From sequence record LC788706.1: a DNA stretch of 64,000 nucleotides, one strand, 5' to 3'. The stretch's first letter is position 1; the number at the start of each line of letters is the position of its first letter. Origin of the DNA: Escherichia coli phage KS_S14. The translations under genes were made by a program, and so were the position numbers. The notes beneath the pieces are model-generated. The model was not told the DNA's origin and made no database searches. It saw nothing but the letters and a program-made list of their open reading frames with translations. Positions 30,491 through 63,416 of this stretch are shown here, piece after piece.

Positions 30491-31258
30491 TTATTCAGCA
30501 GCCGCAGCTTTTGCATCCAGTTTAGCACGCTTAGCGGCACCATCATAGTCCTTAGCAACCAGACCACGACGAGACAACATAGATTTAACACCACGCTCAG
30601 ACTTACCAGTTTTCTCAGCGATCTCAGCAACGGTCATGTTAACCAGATCCAGACCTTCTAGCAGATCTTCACGAGTTTTAGCACTTGAAGTTTCCTGTAC
30701 CGGCATAGCAGCGATACGACCTTCACGAAGCAGGCTCAGAGCTTTACCACGGATCTGCTTGATATTACGACCGAAGTGAGCAGCGATAGCTTCAATAGTA
30801 GCTCCAGCAACAACCTGATTAACAAAATCGGTTTCTTCATCAGGAGTGAAGGAACGAACAGCAGCAGCTTTTTCAGTTGGTTTAACAGAGGCGGTCATTT
30901 CCAGACTCAGGATCTTACCCTGTACCTGCTTAGCACCAAATTGACCACCAACTACAGCAGCAGCGATTTCAGCATAAGTATACTGACCAGCATGAGCGTT
31001 CAGGAAATCAACCAGTTCAGCTTCCTGCTCAGGAGTCCATGGGGATTTCTGTACTTCGTTAGCTTTCTGTACTTCAAAACCTTCTTTACGCAGTTTAGAG
31101 CCAACAGAGCGAGCAGTAACATCTTTGCCAGTTTCAGCAGCCAGTTCAGCAGCAATAGCAGCTACTTGTTCTTGAGAGATTACAGAAACACCCAGAGCGG
31201 TGGCTTTTGCTTTCAGAGACTCGGTTACACCTTCTACGTTCCAGTTCAGTTTAGACAT
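30491..31258 (-). CDS. putative DNA-binding protein (D5 position)
   Basis: 255-aa Ala/Lys-rich ORF with repeated helix-rich segments; synteny only. Confidence 0.45.
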   Translation of the reverse strand: MSKLNWNVEGVTESLKAKATALGVSVISQEQVAAIAAELAAETGKDVTARSVGSKLRKEGFEVQKANEVQKSPWTPEQEAELVDFLNAHAGQYTYAEIAAAVVGGQFGAKQVQGKILSLEMTASVKPTEKAAAVRSFTPDEETDFVNQVVAGATIEAIAAHFGRNIKQIRGKALSLLREGRIAAMPVQETSSAKTREDLLEGLDLVNMTVAEIAEKTGKSERGVKSMLSRRGLVAKDYDGAAKRAKLDAKAAAAE

Positions 31259-35520: not shown

Positions 35521-35763
35521 TTACGATTCCTTGAGCAAAGAAGCAAGTTCAGCATAGACTTTATCTAATTCAAAGCCGATGCGAAGAGACACGTTTGTTT
35601 TCCGTTGTTTAAGTAACCACTCGGATATGTTAGGGATGCCAGCTAATCTATGCGGTACCACCCTACATAGCTTTTCCGAAGTGTCGTAAACAGGAACTTT
35701 ACGTTCTTTTACTGGAAACTTCCTTGTTTCCCATTTTTTATTCTTCACTGTCATTTCTAGCAC
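35521..35763 (-). CDS. hypothetical protein
   Basis: 80-aa basic ORF. Confidence 0.4.
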   Translation of the reverse strand: MLEMTVKNKKWETRKFPVKERKVPVYDTSEKLCRVVPHRLAGIPNISEWLLKQRKTNVSLRIGFELDKVYAELASLLKES

Positions 35764-38605
35764 CTAGCTCTGCCATTGCTTCATCATGCATATGTTTCTC
35801 CTCATCAGTCATAAACTTATACGGGATTGGCATACACTCGATTTTACAATAGGTTCTGTACCAGTCTACAATATTCTCCGTGTTCATATCCTTACCAATA
35901 CCCATCATACCAAGATACATTCTAGCATATTTTGGGTTAGCACTCTGACCTGTTTTAAGGAAGAAATCTTTCTTCTTACCTTTCAGAGCTTCTATAAATG
36001 GTTTGATAGTGACATTTGAACACTTCTTAATATCTTCCCAGAACATCTCGTGCATTTTATGGAAAAATGCCGCTCGATCATTCGGTTTATCCTTAATATA
36101 TTGTTCAACATGCTCAACTGTTACATCTTTAATAGACTCAAGATGATAATAGCGAACAAGAAGTAGTTTAGCTTCATACGCATCAGCATGGCGTGGAGCA
36201 CAATAATCAGGGGTTGAATATAAAATAGCTTTGATTCGCTCTTCCGTATATTCCTTCCCAGCACCTTCGATAGTTCCCCAGCTTTCACTGAAAATATCAA
36301 TAGTTGCACCCTGATCAAGCAAGTAATAACGTAAAGTACTAGTATAGTTCCTAGATTCCAGCTCTCTACGACGTGCGTATAATTGCTGTGCTAACTCCAG
36401 CCAACCTTCATCAATGTTATATTGCTCAGAACCTGCGGAGAATCCACTCGTAGATTTATCAATAAAATAATAAATGTTCTGAGCGCCACGGTCGCGCCTG
36501 ATTGCTTGAAAACGCATGTTTGGCGCTTGGTTGCTGGTTCTAGTAATAACGAATACGTTATCAAAATAGTTGAAGTCAACACCACTAGTTACGGAGGGAC
36601 TACATAATAAGCAATCAATTTGTTGATCAATTAGCTCATTAGTTGTGTAATCCAGAATACGTCGAATATCTACATCAGACGTAGAGTTTGAGTGGATTTC
36701 CTTAACTAACGCACCCGTATTACGACGCAGCGCCATACCCTTCTCATTCAGTTCATCCGGGCCACAATCAGATACCAGAATAGATTTCTCCCCCATTTCT
36801 AGAGAAGTCTGAAGTGCAACCCAAATACTGGATTCATCAGGGAACTCATAAGCATGAGCTTTTGACAGCATTTTACGGTGATGATTATAAAATGCAACCG
36901 GTTTATCAAACTCAATTAAAGAACCATATGCTTCAATTGTTTCTGCACTAATATCCCCATCAGATAATATAATAATTTTTGCAGTTGCAAGAATGTCACG
37001 TAGAACTTGAATACATTCGCGACGTTGTTTAACAACCGGGGCGAATAATAGGTCATTCATTACAGCATCACATTCATCGATAAAGATTGCATCAATTTGA
37101 CCAATAAAACTCTTGAACTTATGCAAAGAGTGAATAGTTGTGGACATACGGTCAATAGCACCACGCTTAAAATTAAGCATATCTACAGACTTATCATATT
37201 GTCCTGCACTAAATTTCTTAGCATTTGAAGATACCAGTGCTCGAGTATTGGTAATTGCTAAGAAATTACCTTTAATAACTCCTGAATCTAACCAACGCAC
37301 AACCGCCGTAGTTTTACCTGTACCTAGACTTGCTTTTACAAAAGTCATATAACCTTCTGGTGGTACAGTATTTAATTTCAAGAAGTTATCAGTTTCTAGA
37401 GAATTAGTTTCTAGCTTTTTAAGTGGAATACCTTTTAAAACATCAGGTATATCGCGTTTAGAATTATTAACAAACGCTTTCAGAGCCTGTTTACGGCCGT
37501 TATTAAAGTAATCTTGAATATTACGACTATTATCTTTAGTTGCAATATATTCTGATAAGGCTGGACGGATTTCTTTTTCTAGCCATGCAAAATCAACACC
37601 ATCCTCCAAAGCTCTATGATAGAGTTTAGGTATAATACGTAGATACACCCCATCCTCAGCTTCTTCTAGTTCGCTGATAGTTTCCTCTACTTTATCAGAG
37701 GCAGCTTTTTTACCTTTAATTTGATCGAGTAAAGAGTAAAACTCCTCCTTAAACTCACCTCTAGTTGTTTCATAGTCAACCAGATTATTGGGTAAATTTA
37801 CTTTAGAACCCTTAACAAATACCAGACGTGAAGCACCCTCCGCTTTAAACGGATCTACTATACCATCGGTAAATAACGGATCTGCAAAATAATGGAGCTG
37901 TACGGAAGAGTAATACGCTAAGTCGGCAATATCAAAGCCATACTTTTGTCTACTACTTTCGTTGATAGATGTAAATAAGAATTTGATTTGACCCTGAGTT
38001 ACTTTAACATTAGATTCTAGTATTAAGTGCATTCGGATACCTGGTTTTAGCCCAGACGAAGACGATGCATGAGCGATAAACCCTGCATCAAGAGGAAACA
38101 TATCCTCACTAATACTATTTAACATTCTAATAATATGTCGAGCCATGCCAACAAGATCAAACTTGTTACAACCACCTGTATCTACAATACCATCCACGTC
38201 CATTGCAATTATATGACTTGGGTTAGATACATTAAAGTTGCCCTTCTTACGTCGCACATTATTTTTAGGTGCAAGACATCGACCTCGTACCGCAACGATA
38301 TGAGGGTCAGACGTTAAACGTCTCATAAGAGGGAGCATTTCTACTAGGGTTTGAGGATCAACTTCATCAATTACATCAAACTTGAAGGGCATTGAAGCTG
38401 GTTTACCTTCAGGATGCTTTGAGGAAAATCTTTTAGCAAAAAGATAGTCTTCTGCTTTAACTTCTCGCCAATTGCCTGTGGCTAAATCGCGATGAAATCC
38501 TGCATGACCTTGTAGGATTGAGAACACAACGATACTCCTGTGTTGGAAATGAAATAAGTTTTCTTTAGGACTATTCAGAAAGAATAGAACAACTGTTACT
38601 GTCAA
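35738..38605 (-). CDS. large P-loop ATPase, putative origin-binding / helicase-like replication protein
   Basis: Walker A SLGTGKTT, Walker B-like FIDECD; start uncertain (ORF track start is TTG at 38605; an internal ATG near 38400 is possible). Confidence 0.6.
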   Translation of the reverse strand: MTVTVVLFFLNSPKENLFHFQHRSIVVFSILQGHAGFHRDLATGNWREVKAEDYLFAKRFSSKHPEGKPASMPFKFDVIDEVDPQTLVEMLPLMRRLTSDPHIVAVRGRCLAPKNNVRRKKGNFNVSNPSHIIAMDVDGIVDTGGCNKFDLVGMARHIIRMLNSISEDMFPLDAGFIAHASSSSGLKPGIRMHLILESNVKVTQGQIKFLFTSINESSRQKYGFDIADLAYYSSVQLHYFADPLFTDGIVDPFKAEGASRLVFVKGSKVNLPNNLVDYETTRGEFKEEFYSLLDQIKGKKAASDKVEETISELEEAEDGVYLRIIPKLYHRALEDGVDFAWLEKEIRPALSEYIATKDNSRNIQDYFNNGRKQALKAFVNNSKRDIPDVLKGIPLKKLETNSLETDNFLKLNTVPPEGYMTFVKASLGTGKTTAVVRWLDSGVIKGNFLAITNTRALVSSNAKKFSAGQYDKSVDMLNFKRGAIDRMSTTIHSLHKFKSFIGQIDAIFIDECDAVMNDLLFAPVVKQRRECIQVLRDILATAKIIILSDGDISAETIEAYGSLIEFDKPVAFYNHHRKMLSKAHAYEFPDESSIWVALQTSLEMGEKSILVSDCGPDELNEKGMALRRNTGALVKEIHSNSTSDVDIRRILDYTTNELIDQQIDCLLCSPSVTSGVDFNYFDNVFVITRTSNQAPNMRFQAIRRDRGAQNIYYFIDKSTSGFSAGSEQYNIDEGWLELAQQLYARRRELESRNYTSTLRYYLLDQGATIDIFSESWGTIEGAGKEYTEERIKAILYSTPDYCAPRHADAYEAKLLLVRYYHLESIKDVTVEHVEQYIKDKPNDRAAFFHKMHEMFWEDIKKCSNVTIKPFIEALKGKKKDFFLKTGQSANPKYARMYLGMMGIGKDMNTENIVDWYRTYCKIECMPIPYKFMTDEEKHMHDEAMAELGARNDSEE

Positions 38606-39019
38606 TTTCTCAACAAATTAATTGCAAATACTGAAGTGGGGTGGCAACTTCCACTTTCACGCTACACTGCCGCTTCACTATACCGCACAAATCCTTGAGG
38701 ATGGCCGCTAAGCCAGATTTGCTCACCTAATGCTTCATGTACTAGCTCATACTAGATGTAGTATACCTTACGTCATCACTTCTCAGAGTTTTTCACTCTT
38801 CCCGTCTCACTTCACAACCACCTCACACTAGGTTGCTTCGAGGCCTTACCAGGGTTCCTACGGGATGTAGATCGCTAAGTATTCTATTAATTATTTGTTT
38901 AAAAACTAACACGTAACAGTTAAAACAACCCTTAATGGGGCAGCCTAACTGTTCCGTATCGCGGATTGTAAACAAGAAAAATTAGCAAAATCAATTTTTA
39001 CTAATGTCTCTCAATTCAA

Positions 39020-39065
39020 TATAAATATTATATCAAGATTTTGGGCATCCTGCAAGTAAAATTTT
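39020..39065 (-). promoter_or_regulatory. T5-type promoter (minus strand) ~400 nt upstream of large ATPase gene
   Basis: attata 39027-32, ctgcaa 39050-55 (= TTGCAG), 17-bp spacer. Confidence 0.55.
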
Positions 39066-39131
39066 CCGGATGGTGCTATCATTGGTCTTGAGTACGGATA
39101 AAACCGAGCCAAAATGACTCGGTTATGTGGA

Positions 39132-39329
39132 TTAGACACTTAAAATACTTCTAATCTCTTCTATATACTTATCTACTTTTTTAGCATCTACTTTACTTAG
39201 TTTTCCTATGTCAAAATCAGGATCAGTAAACATTCTAGCTATCTCTATCTCTAGAGACTTACTAATTTTCCCTGTAGTATTCCACTTAGAAATCTTCCCT
39301 TTTATTTTCCAAAATTCCTTATTCATCAT
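39132..39329 (-). CDS. hypothetical protein
   Basis: 65-aa ORF, last gene of coupled operon. Confidence 0.35.
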   Translation of the reverse strand: MMNKEFWKIKGKISKWNTTGKISKSLEIEIARMFTDPDFDIGKLSKVDAKKVDKYIEEIRSILSV

Positions 39330-39711
39330 TTAATCCCGGAACATATACCCCAACACGATTTAATTGTTCTTTAGCTTCTTTGAGAATATCTGGAGTGTAC
39401 TCCCAAATATCATCTTCCACCTGTAAAAGATGGGGCGAACAACTATCATCAGGCACACGACATATGGCCAAACCACGTGGATGGAACAAAGAGAAGTTTA
39501 GGGCAACAATCAAGCCCATAGCAGACAACTCATTCCAATCCAGTTCCCATTCCCCGGCGTATCCAGACAGGAAAACGCCAATGCATGGATCATCTATTTG
39601 CTGCTCAGGAAAAGTGAAGGAGGCTTGTCTTACCCCCAACCAACGTTGTAGCAGCTTCTCCGCACGTTTCACCAAACTAGGGTCAATCTGACGCCAATAT
39701 ACTTGTTCCAT
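39319..39711 (-). CDS. hypothetical protein, paralogue of adjacent 142-aa ORF
   Basis: Shares PCIG, MGL..ALN..LF.P and C-terminal PGL motifs with 39721-40149 product. Confidence 0.5.
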   Translation of the reverse strand: MEQVYWRQIDPSLVKRAEKLLQRWLGVRQASFTFPEQQIDDPCIGVFLSGYAGEWELDWNELSAMGLIVALNFSLFHPRGLAICRVPDDSCSPHLLQVEDDIWEYTPDILKEAKEQLNRVGVYVPGLNDE

Positions 39712-58017: not shown

Positions 58018-58089
58018 GCCGTCCTAGTATAATTGGTATTATCAAGCCGTAACTGGTGGAAGATGTAGGTTCGAATCCTACGGTCGGTA
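58018..58089 (+). tRNA. tRNA-like element, possibly degenerate tRNA
   Basis: Perfect T-arm GTAGG-TTCGAAT-CCTAC and acceptor pairing with one U-U mismatch, but no convincing anticodon stem and no encoded CCA. Confidence 0.3.
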
Positions 58090-58700: not shown

Positions 58701-59648
58701 ATGTTTAATACTAAAAATATGAAAGAACTGACTTCTGAGCAGAAAGTAATTCGTACTATTAAACGTTGGGGTATTGGTGCTGTAGTTGGTTTAGCAGGCT
58801 TGATTCTAGCTTTTAATTCATATACTATTGTTTCTGATGGTACGGTTAAAACCCAAACATTCCTGGGTAAAGTAGATCCTAATCCAGTATTGCCTGGTTT
58901 CCACCTTGTAAACCCGTTTGCATCTTTCGATACTTTTAGTACAAAAGATATTGCTGTAAAATTATATAAACTTCAGGTTCCTAGCCAGGATAAGTTTAAA
59001 TCCACTGTTGACCTGACTGTTATGTTGCAGTTTGATGGTTCTAAGGCACCGATTAACCGTATTAACGCAGGTACTCAGGATCAGGCACTAGACAAGTATG
59101 TAACTGAAAAATTACTGTCTACTATTCGTGAGTTTGGTAAGTCTGTACCTAAAGCACAAGATTTATTTGATGCTAAAATTCAGGCTCAATTGCAAACTGC
59201 AATTCAACAGGAAGTTGAAGAGTATGCACGCCCATATGGTTACACAGTTAAGCAGGTGTTCCTTCAGGATATTACTTTGCCACCGGTAATCATGGAACAG
59301 GTACAGAATACCAAAGTTCGTGAAGAACAGGTTAATGCTGCGAAAGCTGAACTGGCTCGCGTTGAACAAGAAGCTCAGCAGAAAGTCAAACAAGCAGAAG
59401 CAGACCGTGAAGCTCGCAACAACCAAGCTATTGCCAATGAACGTGATGCAGATGCTAAACTGTACGCAGCTAAGAAAGAAGCTGAAGCTAACGCCGCATT
59501 GCAACGTACCATTACTCCTGAGATGATTCGCTGGAAGCAACTGGAAGTTGAAATGATTCGTGCTCAGAAATACCAAGGTGGTGTACCGCAGACTGTGGTT
59601 GGCACTGGCTACGATGGTCAAATGATTATGGATATGCGTAATAAATAA
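58701..59648 (+). CDS. SPFH / band-7 (prohibitin-like) membrane protein
   Basis: 315 aa; N-terminal TM helix (GIGAVVGLAGLILAF), SPFH-like core, Ala/Glu/Gln-rich coiled-coil. Confidence 0.65.
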   Translation: MFNTKNMKELTSEQKVIRTIKRWGIGAVVGLAGLILAFNSYTIVSDGTVKTQTFLGKVDPNPVLPGFHLVNPFASFDTFSTKDIAVKLYKLQVPSQDKFKSTVDLTVMLQFDGSKAPINRINAGTQDQALDKYVTEKLLSTIREFGKSVPKAQDLFDAKIQAQLQTAIQQEVEEYARPYGYTVKQVFLQDITLPPVIMEQVQNTKVREEQVNAAKAELARVEQEAQQKVKQAEADREARNNQAIANERDADAKLYAAKKEAEANAALQRTITPEMIRWKQLEVEMIRAQKYQGGVPQTVVGTGYDGQMIMDMRNK

Positions 59649-62297: not shown

Positions 62298-62375
62298 GGT
62301 TCTCAAGCTCATATGGTATGAGCACCCGGCTCATAACCGGAAGGTACGTAGGTTCGAATCCTCGGGGAGCCACCA
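62298..62375 (+). tRNA. tRNA with CAT anticodon (Met or Ile2-type), weak T-stem
   Basis: Acceptor GGTTCTC/GGGAGCC with G-U pairs, D-stem GCTC/GAGC, anticodon loop CTCATAA, TTCGAAT T-loop but only 3 T-stem pairs; encoded CCA. Confidence 0.45.
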
Positions 62376-63140: not shown

Positions 63141-63416
63141 ATGCAAAATCGTGTTATAGCAACTGGTATTGAAAGTGCAATCTGCAAATCCTGGGAAGAC
63201 TGGGAAGGTGAGATTGAGTGGCTCTATCTCTATAACGTAGAGCTTTTACCAGAAGTTAAAGCTGAATGTATTGAAGCTGGCATGGCTCCAGATGCAAAAG
63301 CTGATATTGATATTTTAATGTCTGAACTTAAAGGTCGTGTAGTTACTGTTAGTACTGAGGGTGAAGAAGTTTTTGAACTTCCGTTCTCCTTAACTGTCAC
63401 TCCTAAGTTCGACTAA
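63141..63416 (+). CDS. hypothetical acidic protein
   Basis: 91-aa ORF, RBS gaaggag, T5-type promoter upstream. Confidence 0.45.
   Translation: MQNRVIATGIESAICKSWEDWEGEIEWLYLYNVELLPEVKAECIEAGMAPDAKADIDILMSELKGRVVTVSTEGEEVFELPFSLTVTPKFD

Follow-up and report, generated by a model that had tools for sequence, protein, structure and literature searches.

Introduction

ROOL and GOLLD are large 'ornate' RNAs, in many cases encoded by a phage or prophage, that form nanocages seen by cryo-EM (PMC12286853). Both are tailed-phage RNAs of more than 400 nt, multi-junction, strongly covarying and with no known biochemical function, and in all of these respects they are like the RNA described here. They differ from it in being free-standing genes, most often close to tRNA genes, in Firmicutes and lake metagenomes, whereas the present RNA belongs to Demerecviridae of Gammaproteobacteria and always lies directly upstream of one helicase gene.

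For 70 years bacteriophage T5 has served as a model, and annotation of its genome dates from 2004-2005; even so, a 455-nt RNA at the start of the replication gene cluster has gone unannotated. That the region upstream of the helicase gene encodes a large conserved structured RNA, and is not a spacer, is close to certain. This RNA is undescribed in Rfam 15, in T5 annotations and in the searchable literature. The gene behind it, T5.108, encodes the 'D2' bipolar helicase of Wong et al. 2013, a UL9-like helicase put forward as the T5 initiator (PMC3632103).

A transcription unit ahead of the helicase gene

The window, meaning the whole 64,000-nt stretch of DNA that was analysed, comes from a T5-like phage (Tequintavirus); its relevant features are collected in Table 1. 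The minus-strand promoter that a sequence-only reading had placed upstream of the helicase gene is confirmed. It is an early sigma-70 promoter kept in all Markadamsvirinae loci examined, and the two T5 reference records annotate the site as a promoter or as 'putative early promoter T5P32'. A simple consensus scanner overlooked it because TTGCAG fits TTGACA at just three of six positions. From its elements we infer a transcription start near 39020. The intrinsic terminator of the upstream gene corresponds to inverted repeat I14, carries the label of terminator in HASG4 and the two T5 records, and isolates the RNA and helicase from that gene; promoter and terminator thus bracket the transcription unit.

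Table 1. Coordinates in the window of the RNA, its parts and the neighbouring signals
Feature	Coordinates	Strand	Details
Helicase gene	35738-38527	-	SF2 helicase, 929 aa; 'replication origin binding protein', T5.108
Shine-Dalgarno and start codon	38525-38539	-	AGGAG 38539-38535; GTG 38527-38525
Whole structured RNA, ~455 nt	38558-39012	-	P1, outer helix, 5' domain, core, terminal hairpin
Terminal hairpin	38571-38587	-	CUAUUC-UUUCU-GAAUAG; covaries as CUAUC/GAUAG and CUUUCC/GGAAAG
Core domain, ~330 nt	38591-38921	-	multi-junction, closed by a long-range helix
Core closing helix	38921-38913 / 38599-38591	-	AACUGUUAC / GUAACAGUU; covaries in 8 lineages
Inner core	38655-38877	-	covariance model R1; 59 base pairs, 4 branch points
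Hairpin 2 of three-way junction	38673-38732	-	loop with invariant GGCUUAGCGGCC
5' domain, P3	38926-38968	-	CAAUCC/GGGUUG; P3 covariation
P1 hairpin	38974-39012	-	GAGAGAC AUUAGUAAAA ... UUUUGCUAAU UUUUCUU
Early sigma-70 promoter	39027-39055	-	-35 TTGCAG 39055-39050; 17-nt spacer
Extended -10 of early promoter	TG 39035-34; TATAAT 39032-39027	-	read from sequence
Intrinsic terminator of upstream gene	39099-39124	-	AACCGAGUC-AUUUU-GGCUCGGUU + UUUAU

Apart from the terminator of the upstream gene, no terminator-like site was found within 38300-39400, and in T5-likes no internal promoter is conserved from the RNA to the GTG; the helicase of these phages must therefore be translated from the transcript that carries the RNA. 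The RNA is evidently transcribed from the conserved early promoter and would form, in T5-likes, the 5' part of an mRNA for the helicase and for the replication genes that follow it. On the plus strand the single promoter-like site, a 9/12 match at 39140-39169, lies outside the RNA.

The start of the helicase gene required correction. The 955-aa ATPase of the earlier reading results from extending the ORF to its limit, TTG 38605, which puts the start about 78 nt too far upstream; annotated homologues all begin at GTG 38527. Consequently, the untranslated leader that had been proposed stands, but its length is about 490 nt (about 39020-38528) and not about 400. Helicase residues 394-533 match Pfam Herpes_ori_bp (E 3e-7), the protein falls in PHROG 3712, and its PDB matches are to UL9-type origin-binding proteins. 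For the N-terminal domain (390 aa) there were no Pfam or PDB relatives and only two fragments among protein database relatives, and its single-sequence AlphaFold model (pLDDT 35) was unusable. In every family member the helicase gene is the next gene downstream of the RNA, with replication genes following behind it.

Between promoter and helicase gene there is no ORF of at least 60 aa, which bears out the earlier description of the stretch as ORF-free. Short ORFs of 33-50 aa, mostly with GTG or TTG starts, do exist, and some GenBank records annotate two to four of them as 'hypothetical proteins'. That these are genuine small protein genes is barely credible, however: even close relatives differ in the strand, frame, position and length of these ORFs, so that none is conserved in any of these respects; most lack an ATG; substitutions follow a logic of base-pairing, not of codons; and 1-nt indels separate near-identical phages. 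A conserved protein-coding frame, which would have told against a non-coding element, was found in none of the relatives. Such spurious 'hypothetical proteins' fill the region in hundreds of phage genomes used for therapy and biocontrol.

A large fold maintained by compensation

The 455-nt RNA has a minimum free energy of -128 kcal/mol (z = -3.45), a stability reached by none of 100 shuffled sequences. P1 comes first in the fold, and an outer helix then gathers the 5' domain, the core and the terminal hairpin; the basal strand of P1, UUUUCUU (38980-38974), has as its alternative partner AAGAAAA (38565-38559), which is the outer helix. P1 covaries in the Klebsiella, L040, My1, AAS21 and L054 lineages. 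In the 5' domain, P3 occurs also as CCGAGCAU/AUGCUUGG, CAUAGA/UUUAUG and UAUAGA/UUUAUA, and surrounds the near-invariant element AUACGGAACAGUUAGGCUGCCCC (38959-38937) with its mini-hairpin CAGU-UAG-GCUG, in which an A-U pair is replaced by G-C in AAS21 and L054. Within hairpin 2 of the core, the loop element GCUUAGCGGC (38713-38704) forms a 3-bp mini-stem capped by UUAGCG (38711-38706) and followed by a conserved GAAG. It is invariant in all 50+ Markadamsvirinae loci, and by eye the mini-stem shows a G-C to A-U change in AAS21 and My1. The terminal hairpin has no U-tract after it and is hence not a terminator, and the Shine-Dalgarno sequence lies about 20 nt past the end of the fold.

Compensatory changes back nearly every helix. 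In a six-sequence MAFFT alignment, where 93.4% of cells were paired, both sides had changed in 26 of 102 pairs, against 13.2 double-changed pairs in shuffles (0/500 reached the observed count) and 2-6 in slid controls. In a model-fitted alignment of 12 distinct sequences the figure was 48 of 59 pairs, against 27.9 in shuffles (again 0/500) and 12-19 when slid. The P1, outer, P3, closing and terminal helices are kept despite different sequences in up to eight lineages. The fold is thus under selection, its helices maintained by compensation while the sequence drifts, and the 5' domain and loops are under strong purifying selection. The covariation support for this RNA is greater than that of many accepted RNA families.

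Two covariance models were used, R1 for the core (223 positions) and R2 for a hairpin (60 positions). R1 scores 254 bits in the window, 207 in Pantoea AAS21, 202 in L054, 95 in L040, 54 in Pectobacterium My1, 22 in Klebsiella (E 1e-5) and 19 in T5 type B (E 1e-4), and its matches to the core all fall at one equivalent position in the phages of Pantoea, Pectobacterium and Klebsiella and in T5/Epseptimavirus. The leader was found in 443-526 phage records, and each family member examined carries it as a single copy at one fixed position. A covarying structure at a fixed position upstream of the helicase gene in Tequintavirus, Epseptimavirus, Klebsiella, Pantoea and Pectobacterium phages is what defines the proposed new family, Demerecviridae helicase-upstream RNA, to which the Markadamsvirinae RNA belongs. 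The conservation analysis in related phages that the sequence-only reading had suggested thus yields a fold that is both conserved and covarying. A metagenome scan by helicase gained one new lineage, L054. Matches to ACRGAACAGTNNGGCTGC in genome contigs were put down to chance, none of those tested matching R1, as were nine extra matches in viral contigs. A blastn search of 5,426 E. coli genomes returned no similarity to the RNA.

The structured 5' UTR suggested earlier is strongly supported as a physical description, being contiguous with helicase mRNA in T5-likes. The alternative suggestion of a small RNA holds for 'RNA' but not for 'small', given a multi-junction molecule of about 455 nt that reaches about 1.25 kb in Aeromonas relatives. 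The earlier reading's inverted repeat ACAGTTA...TAACTGT does exist (arms 38911-38922 and 38946-38957), but evolution has not maintained this pairing. A G-to-A change disrupts it in T5 and Epseptimavirus and is compensated in a different partner 320 nt downstream (AACUAUUACUA / UAGUAAUAGUU), and the hairpin was rejected because of this distal compensation.

The invariant single-stranded and loop elements comprise ACGGAACAGUYMGGCUG (the consensus of the 5' domain hairpin), AAGYGAUCU, GAGAAGUG and the UUAGCG-capped hairpin. A pseudoknot between GGCUGC of the 5' domain and GCGGCC of the invariant loop was set aside, local hairpins being better supported for both segments; by visual inspection, pairings of the loop with P1 and with the Shine-Dalgarno sequence are not kept across clades. 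A second exact GCTTAGCGGC at 30529 (+), which would put the loop complement in another early mRNA, is compatible with chance.

Among 4227 covariance models of Rfam 15 only tRNAs pass the gathering threshold in the whole window. When 38400-39250 was searched at E up to 10, archaeal sR17 came closest, with 17.6 bits where the gathering score is 36, and ten related loci gave nothing relevant at E up to 1. Models for riboswitches, leaders, ribozymes, introns, ROOL, GOLLD, OLE, raiA, 6S and tmRNA do not match the RNA region. The weak sR17/sR12 matches, on CUGAGAAGUGAUGA (38745-38809), would imply a box C/D K-loop RNA and were rejected because the boxes vary among relatives: UGAUGA becomes GUGAUUC, GUGUUAC or AUGGGAG, and only GAGAAGUG is kept there. 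A group I or group II intron or self-cleaving ribozyme was dismissed for want of any Rfam match and because the element is not intragenic, lying between the terminator and promoter and the start codon. Rad, the anti-retron factor of the T5 family, is an unrelated 189-aa protein in the tRNA region.

Riboswitch aptamers are typically compact, spanning 35-200 nt with a conserved pocket; this fold has 455 nt, at least four junctions and invariant nucleotides. No expression platform for a riboswitch or attenuator was found, there being no terminator in T5-likes and no anti-SD pairing kept across clades as judged by eye. An anti-SD-like stretch in the hairpin-2 loop occurs in some clades only, also by eye.

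Interchangeable cores and the question of an origin

The core occurs in two types, A and B, that have been swapped for one another; identity between them falls to about 50%, in this domain only, between flanks of more than 94%. The core is exchanged as a cassette in two subfamilies, between types A and B in T5-likes and between Vibrio Achelous and Wyman, which hints at type specificity or an arms race played out on an RNA. Moreover, core types swap between phages without matching helicase changes, which argues against tight recognition between RNA and helicase. An optional 89-nt insertion between TTTTTCTT repeats is present in 51 records.

Cassette-like replacement between conserved flanks, the repeat-bounded insertion and the HNH homing endonuclease genes that lie directly upstream in several phages could all suggest a selfish or mobile non-coding cassette, perhaps a degenerate ribozyme or intron-like or homing-associated element, kept by the neighbouring endonucleases. 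This is nevertheless very improbable. The element is universal in the family members examined, at a fixed position and in single copy; no group I/II intron or ribozyme model matches it; the HNH genes accompany both core types; and purifying selection on the 5' domain and loops is strong.

An origin-associated element was among the functions first proposed for this stretch, and in its developed form the proposal would have the folded, G-rich transcript form a persistent RNA-DNA hybrid beside the initiator helicase gene and be processed into a primer for the family-A DNA polymerase of T5, on the pattern of ColE1 RNA II, T4 oriF/oriG or the T7 primary origin. The strong co-oriented promoter about 500 nt upstream of the gene for the UL9-like helicase, the proposed T5 initiator (PMC3632103), would suit such a role. 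So would a length close to that of ColE1 RNA II (555 nt), for which folding is essential too, a transcript with G in excess of C (core G 26%, C 16%), and an AT-rich stretch right after the promoter (GC 28% at 38950-39049). Early EM mapping reportedly put a main T5 origin near the genome centre, and in T5 the locus occupies 59074-59544 of 121,750 bp (48.5-49% of the genome).

Set against this, there are no iterons, only four two-copy repeats of 9-15 nt that form no array, and the minimum of cumulative GC skew falls at about 44 kb of the window, some 5 kb away, at a switch of gene orientation. The pyrimidine richness and strong skew once noted are themselves weak, since the core is 57% pyrimidine on the plus strand, and the flanking coding sequence is skewed at least as strongly as the core with its GC skew of -0.2 to -0.42. 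The editing bias of Recombitrons suggests that T5 replication is dominantly unidirectional from one genome end (PMC10055335), and gives no pointer to this locus. At least 14 covarying helices with invariant loops would be superfluous for a simple R-loop primer, no promoter for an antisense regulator of the RNA I type lies inside the region, and the core is freely swapped. The origin proposal is consequently without positive support, and an origin RNA is improbable.

Distant relatives and a possible stand-alone RNA

Beyond Markadamsvirinae, R1 with filters off finds nothing in Providencia, Proteus, Vibrio or Aeromonas loci. R2 scores 41 bits in Providencia (E 1e-9), 13.2 in Proteus (E 0.43) and 10.8 in Aeromonas (E 2.2), the latter two matches each lying at the expected place. 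The UUAGCG-capped hairpin occurs also in Providencia and Aeromonas phages. In a 1.6-kb Aeromonas region YTTAGCGG has three sense-strand copies against about 0.05 expected by calculation; the Vibrio relatives lack the motif. The Aeromonas RNA, about 1.25 kb long and with its own promoter, shares with the T5 RNA the 5' start UGAGAAA and the context GAAUC...GGUUC. Between two sequences of it, 28 of 145 pairs are compensatory and none is broken, and it ends in a covarying intrinsic terminator just ahead of the helicase gene. Attenuating leaders classically have this layout. The evidence that the RNAs of Aeromonas and Vibrio phages are homologous to that of T5 is no more than suggestive. In Proteus phage Stubb a full TTGACA-17-TATAAT promoter lies between the RNA region and the helicase gene, and it would uncouple the two there if the Stubb RNA is homologous.

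These relatives bring into view a stand-alone, trans-acting large ncRNA, released by processing from the 5' end of the early transcript or, in the Aeromonas and Vibrio relatives, by termination. It might serve, for example, as a scaffold or sponge for host or phage proteins, as an anti-defence decoy or as a self-assembling RNA like ROOL and GOLLD. Autonomous RNAs typically show such size and complexity and such a closed architecture, in which an outer helix joins the 5' end to the 3' end. In Aeromonas phages the RNA has a promoter and a covarying terminator of its own, and carries the UUAGCG hairpin two to three times, as protein-sponging RNAs do. Core cassette exchange in two subfamilies is usual for arms-race or type-specific molecules, and the Shine-Dalgarno sequence is outside the fold. 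Yet the T5-likes have no terminator or recognisable processing signal past the fold, the Aeromonas and Vibrio homology rests on shared motifs, position and an R2 score of 10.8 bits (E 2.2), and the RNA is without a known partner, likeness to an Rfam family or similarity to E. coli sequence. A trans-acting RNA is somewhat unlikely.

What the RNA may do

Most probably this is a new large phage RNA that is made as the replication operon's leader. A cis-acting, factor-binding mechanism for it is our tentative preference, at rather less than even confidence. The folded RNA would be a factor-binding leader of the replication operon, and a phage or host protein, perhaps the helicase encoded downstream, would dock on its invariant loops. 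Early in infection, such binding would determine how stable the replication-operon transcript is, how it is processed or how it is translated. The leader would be a very large, cis-acting ribonucleoprotein leader rather than a small-molecule riboswitch. Against this, a multi-junction RNA of 455-1250 nt looks more like a stand-alone 'ornate' RNA. To our knowledge no bacterial cis-regulator approaches 455-1250 nt in size.

More broadly, there is nearly an even chance that these RNAs constitute a new large 'ornate' class across Demerecviridae, from about 0.45 to about 1.25 kb, with an autonomous core that circulates as interchangeable alleles and a role beyond 5'-UTR regulation. Such a molecule might be a ribonucleoprotein or self-assembling RNA that takes part, together with the UL9-like helicase, in starting the replication of phage DNA; or it might serve early in infection to neutralise a host factor or to evade it. 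If it is true that the RNA regulates or assists the initiator helicase, it offers a handle on the start of T5 replication.

Comparison with known RNAs

The leaders of ribosomal-protein operons and the T4 gene 32 and regA operators share with the T5 RNA a structured 5' leader before the first gene of an operon, and its invariant loops resemble the protein docking sites of such autoregulatory leaders. These, however, are 50-150 nt long and overlap the ribosome-binding site, whereas the T5 RNA is 455 nt with the Shine-Dalgarno sequence outside. ColE1 RNA II, T4 oriF/oriG and T7 are alike in having a strong constitutive promoter about 500 nt before replication functions, a folded G-rich transcript and an adjacent initiator-type helicase. 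The T5 RNA differs in that no antisense partner like the RNA I of ColE1 was found, and in a structural conservation far more elaborate than those origins need.

OLE and raiA are in a similar size class, have conserved loops between covarying helices and are likely ribonucleoproteins. They differ as chromosomal genes of Gram-positive bacteria whose models do not match the T5 RNA, and allelic replacement of the core, as seen here, is not described for them. The likeness to ROOL and GOLLD would include production during lytic growth; in T5-likes it is fused to the helicase mRNA, in contrast to ROOL and GOLLD, and it has no match to their models. If the T5 RNA is trans-acting, it adds a Gram-negative, genetically tractable member to the few large phage RNAs typified by ROOL and GOLLD, and the combined genetics of T5 and E. 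coli could settle the role of such RNAs.

Evidence for a large structured RNA

The evidence strongly supports a new family of large structured RNAs, found in a classic model phage and bearing an exchangeable core. The region upstream of the SF2 helicase gene was collected from Tequintavirus, Epseptimavirus, a Klebsiella lineage (73% helicase identity), Pantoea phage AAS21 and its metagenomic relative L054, Pectobacterium phage My1, the lineage L040, and phages of Providencia, Proteus, Vibrio and Aeromonas. In every one, a promoter is followed by a long ORF-poor stretch 5' of the helicase gene, measuring ~480-530 nt in Markadamsvirinae, ~620 nt in Providencia phages, ~800 nt in Proteus phages and 700 to >1500 nt in those of Vibrio and Aeromonas. 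In alignments, invariant blocks alternate with segments whose changes preserve base pairs. Within a plain MAFFT alignment of six sequences (A3), for which RNAalifold gives 102 pairs in 14 helices, 93.4% of cells are paired and both-sided changes affect 26 pairs, against 13.2 +/- 2.4 in shuffles (0/500 reach the observed value) and only 2-6 after the 3' partners have been shifted by 1-3 columns. Matches to R1, a covariance model of the inner core (223 positions, 59 pairs), are all full-length and all at the homologous position, scoring 254 bits in the window, 207 in AAS21, 202 in L054, 95 in L040, 54 in My1, 22 in the Klebsiella lineage (E 1e-5) and 17-19 in the T5/Epseptimavirus form (E ~1e-4). 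In the R1-fitted alignment of 12 distinct sequences, which leans toward the model, double changes occur in 48 of the 59 pairs; shuffled controls yield 27.9 (0/500 as high) and slid partners 12-19. For the 455-nt RNA the folding energy is -128 kcal/mol (z = -3.45). The element exists at the level of RNA, and selection maintains its fold.

Given that Rfam 15 holds no match at any threshold, that 471 nt between promoter and gene bear no annotation in the T5 reference records (other records being blank or filled with ad hoc hypothetical proteins), that full-text searches returned no description of an RNA at this locus, that E. coli genomes have no similarity to it, and that its 5' motif gives only chance matches outside T5-like phages, the RNA is treated here as undescribed, a claim that extends as far as the openly searchable literature.

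Boundaries and coding content

A search with the 801 bases around the RNA region finds 526 phage records, with identities of up to 99.6%; without exception they belong to T5-like phages of Salmonella, Escherichia, Klebsiella and relatives (Demerecviridae, mostly Tequintavirus and Epseptimavirus). The sequence-only reading had placed a pyrimidine-rich, ORF-free leader of ~400 nt before a 955-aa ATPase gene. That ORF (35738-38605), opened at TTG 38605, is an over-extension running 26 codons into the RNA; annotated homologues all begin at GTG 38527, giving 929 aa, and 5' of this codon their sequences diverge with indels, so that the untranslated stretch comes to ~490 nt. The gene product is an SF2 helicase annotated as 'replication origin binding protein' (T5.108), a member of PHROG 3712 with a Pfam Herpes_ori_bp match at residues 394-533 and herpesvirus UL9-type proteins as PDB relatives; under the name D2 it has been characterised as a bipolar helicase and proposed as the T5 replication initiator (Wong et al., PMC3632103).

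The region does lack a conserved ORF. Short ORFs of 33-50 aa nevertheless exist, and some depositors annotate short ORFs here, but strand, frame, position and length are not kept even between near relatives, and that hidden small genes explain the region is highly improbable. The compositional argument proved weak, the core being 57% pyrimidine on the plus strand with a GC skew not above that of neighbouring coding DNA. The inverted repeat ACAGTTA...TAACTGT is present but is not the evolutionarily maintained pairing: its TAACTGT arm belongs to the closing helix, and T5 and Epseptimavirus, which alter this arm, compensate in the distal partner rather than the proximal one. The original observation was real but mis-measured and the features it quoted incidental; a structured RNA is of considerably greater interest than an 'ORF-free leader'.

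The minus-strand promoter is real: it is near-invariant in relatives and annotated in both T5 reference genomes ('promoter' and 'putative early promoter T5P32'), although the T5 'TTGC' type of its -35 box caused a simple promoter scanner to miss it. The RNA is transcribed from this early promoter and, in T5-likes, forms the physical leader of the helicase/replication operon: neither a terminator nor a conserved internal promoter separates it from the helicase gene.

Upstream, a 65-aa minus-strand ORF (39132-39329), ending at 39132, stands between the terminator and the DUF7415 gene (39319-39711). Pfam offers no match for it, and T5 itself lacks it: there, the terminator comes directly after T5.107. 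An HNH homing-endonuclease gene lies directly upstream of the RNA in Shivani and AKFV33 (L004:1-354, L006:1-354) and in loci L012, L019 and L025. Where it is inserted, the usual terminator and promoter are replaced by another promoter (TTGCAA-17-TATAGT/TATAAT), and beyond it conservation restarts with GAGAGAC of P1, a point that marks the RNA's 5' limit.

Anatomy of the RNA

Features of the RNA and its surroundings (window coordinates unless a related-phage locus is named)
Feature	Position	Strand	Remarks
Terminator hairpin	39124-39099	-	annotated so in three related records
Promoter	TTGCAG 39055-39050; TG 39035-34; TATAAT 39032-39027	-	17-nt spacer; sequence reading
P1 hairpin	39012-38974	-	
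89-nt insertion	L016:949-1045; L002		DT57C, SP3, Gostya9, phiR2-01, S126, others; insertion point window ~38974-38981
Outer helix	UUUUCUU 38980-38974 / AAGAAAA 38565-38559	-	full switch to AUUGCU/AGCAAU in My1
5' domain	38968-38926	-	contains helix P3
Closing helix	AACUGUUAC 38921-38913 / GUAACAGUU 38599-38591	-	eight sequence versions
Core, 330 nt	38591-38921	-	two three-way-junction subdomains, conserved junction AAGYGAUCU, conserved GAGAAGUG, hairpin 2
Invariant GGCUUAGCGGCC in hairpin 2 loop	38713-38704	-	3-bp stem, UUAGCG cap
Terminal hairpin	38587-38571	-	covaries; without U-tract
Linker, ~20 nt		-	between terminal hairpin and Shine-Dalgarno + GTG
Shine-Dalgarno AGGAG	38539-38535	-	5' of GTG 38527

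Since the 5' strand of the outer helix overlaps the base of P1, the two are possibly alternative pairings. P3 occurs as CAAUCC/GGGUUG, CCGAGCAU/AUGCUUGG, CAUAGA/UUUAUG and UAUAGA/UUUAUA, and the 5' domain displays a near-invariant AUACGGAACAGUUAGGCUGCCCC with a mini-hairpin that changes from CAGU/GCUG to CGGU/GCCG. Versions of the closing helix include GAUUAUUAUACAG/CUGUAUAAUAAUU and GGUUAUUAUAUAAC/GUUAUAUAAUAACC.

A second exact copy of GCTTAGCGGC lies at 30529-30538 (+), on the strand opposite to the RNA, so the minus-strand mRNA of a 255-aa gene (30491-31258) bears the perfect complement of the invariant loop; by rough estimate, ~0.1 exact 10-mers would be expected elsewhere in the window by chance.

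Core alleles and an optional insertion

Two versions of the core exist, type A (the window, DT57C, SP3 and others) and type B (T5, AKFV33 and Epseptimavirus, including loci L019, L026 and L030). Their identity is 94-100% across promoter, P1 and 5' domain, drops to ~50% exactly inside the core bounded by the closing helix, and recovers to 75-95% over the 3' end and helicase gene, yet the two are nearly equal in length (375 vs 373 nt), parallel in architecture, and R1 still detects type B. Because identity falls only in the core, and the type A core is nearer to the cores of Pantoea and Pectobacterium phages than to type B, the core behaves as an exchangeable cassette. The same pattern recurs in a different subfamily, in the Vibrio Thalassavirus phages Achelous (L044:960-1700) and Wyman (L221:1001-1870), whose promoter, first ~130 nt and last 40 nt are identical while their centres of 600-700 nt are unalignable (20-40% identity). 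An extra structured insertion of 89 nt, flanked on both sides by TTTTTCTT direct repeats, occurs at one point after P1 in 51 phages of both core types, once per genome and at this locus alone. That the RNA as a whole is a selfish cassette is very unlikely.

Reach into distant relatives

With R2, a small covariance model of hairpin 2, the RNA of Providencia phages scores 41 bits (E 1e-9). For Proteus (13 bits) and Aeromonas (10.8 bits), the model's best match in the locus lies in the expected place but is non-significant. Aeromonas phage TS3 carries YTTAGCGG three times, all on the sense strand of a 1.6-kb unannotated region, where an estimated ~0.05 would be expected by chance. Comparison of TS3 (L046:278-1525) with AhSzw-1 (L220:953-2252; 73% identity) reveals a structured RNA of ~1.25 kb with its own promoter in the corresponding position before the helicase gene, a 5' start of GAACUGAGAAA (T5 counterpart GAAUUGAGAGA), 2-3 UUAGCG-capped hairpins with covarying stems, and a covarying intrinsic terminator ~100 nt 5' of the helicase gene. 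For the first 500 nt of these two sequences, RNAalifold gives 145 pairs; compensatory changes affect 28, and no pair is broken. Given the R2 matches and these Aeromonas features, the whole family carries a large structured RNA upstream of the helicase; that the distant versions are strictly homologous to the T5 RNA is likely, if short of proven.

The 72-aa 'DUF91' CDS annotated in AhSzw-1, which overlaps with the terminator, may be spurious. Proteus phage Stubb (L042:705-1500) has an upstream region of ~800 nt that starts with its own TTGACA-17-TATAAT promoter; with a second full consensus promoter directly 5' of the helicase gene, RNA and helicase may be separate transcription units there. 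Within the window, a weak R2 match at 63202-63276 (+) (17.5 bits, E 0.02), in the tRNA cluster between tRNA-Leu and tRNA-Tyr, is probably chance, though small RNAs without an assigned function are known to be encoded in T5 tRNA regions. The 58-64 kb cluster holds eight tRNAs by the Rfam tRNA model versus six by ARAGORN, and the two extra ones, lower-scoring tRNA-like sequences at 58018-58089 and 62298-62372 (+) (35.5 and 40.3 bits), could be tRNAs that are degenerate or unusual.

Possible functions

Both neighbourhood and length fit a primer or R-loop origin RNA of the ColE1/T4/T7 type, but the locus has no iterons, the GC-skew minimum lies elsewhere and such a role sits uneasily with published evidence for replication from one end, leaving this explanation doubtful. 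Cumulative GC skew peaks at ~17,000 and bottoms at ~44,000, with a sign change there. Most ORFs listed between 28 and 44 kb lie on the minus strand, so the pattern looks like a gene-orientation block. Papers on T5-like genomes that place an 'origin' by skew (e.g. phiLLS, PMC5519627) may accordingly have marked an orientation switch and not an origin.

The reading tentatively preferred is a very large cis-acting ribonucleoprotein leader of the replication-operon mRNA, in which the invariant loops would serve as docking sites for a factor and the folded leader would set the stability, processing or translation of that mRNA. In Aeromonas, where leader, terminator and gene follow one another, the layout agrees with an attenuator form of this reading. 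However, T5-likes have no visible expression platform, the core is swapped without matching helicase changes, and the size is without precedent among cis-regulators. The closed architecture, the cassette exchange of the core and the repeated UUAGCG hairpins of Aeromonas are instead what favours the main rival, possible though somewhat unlikely: an autonomous trans-acting RNA, processed or terminated, of the ROOL/GOLLD kind, or else a protein sponge or anti-defence RNA.
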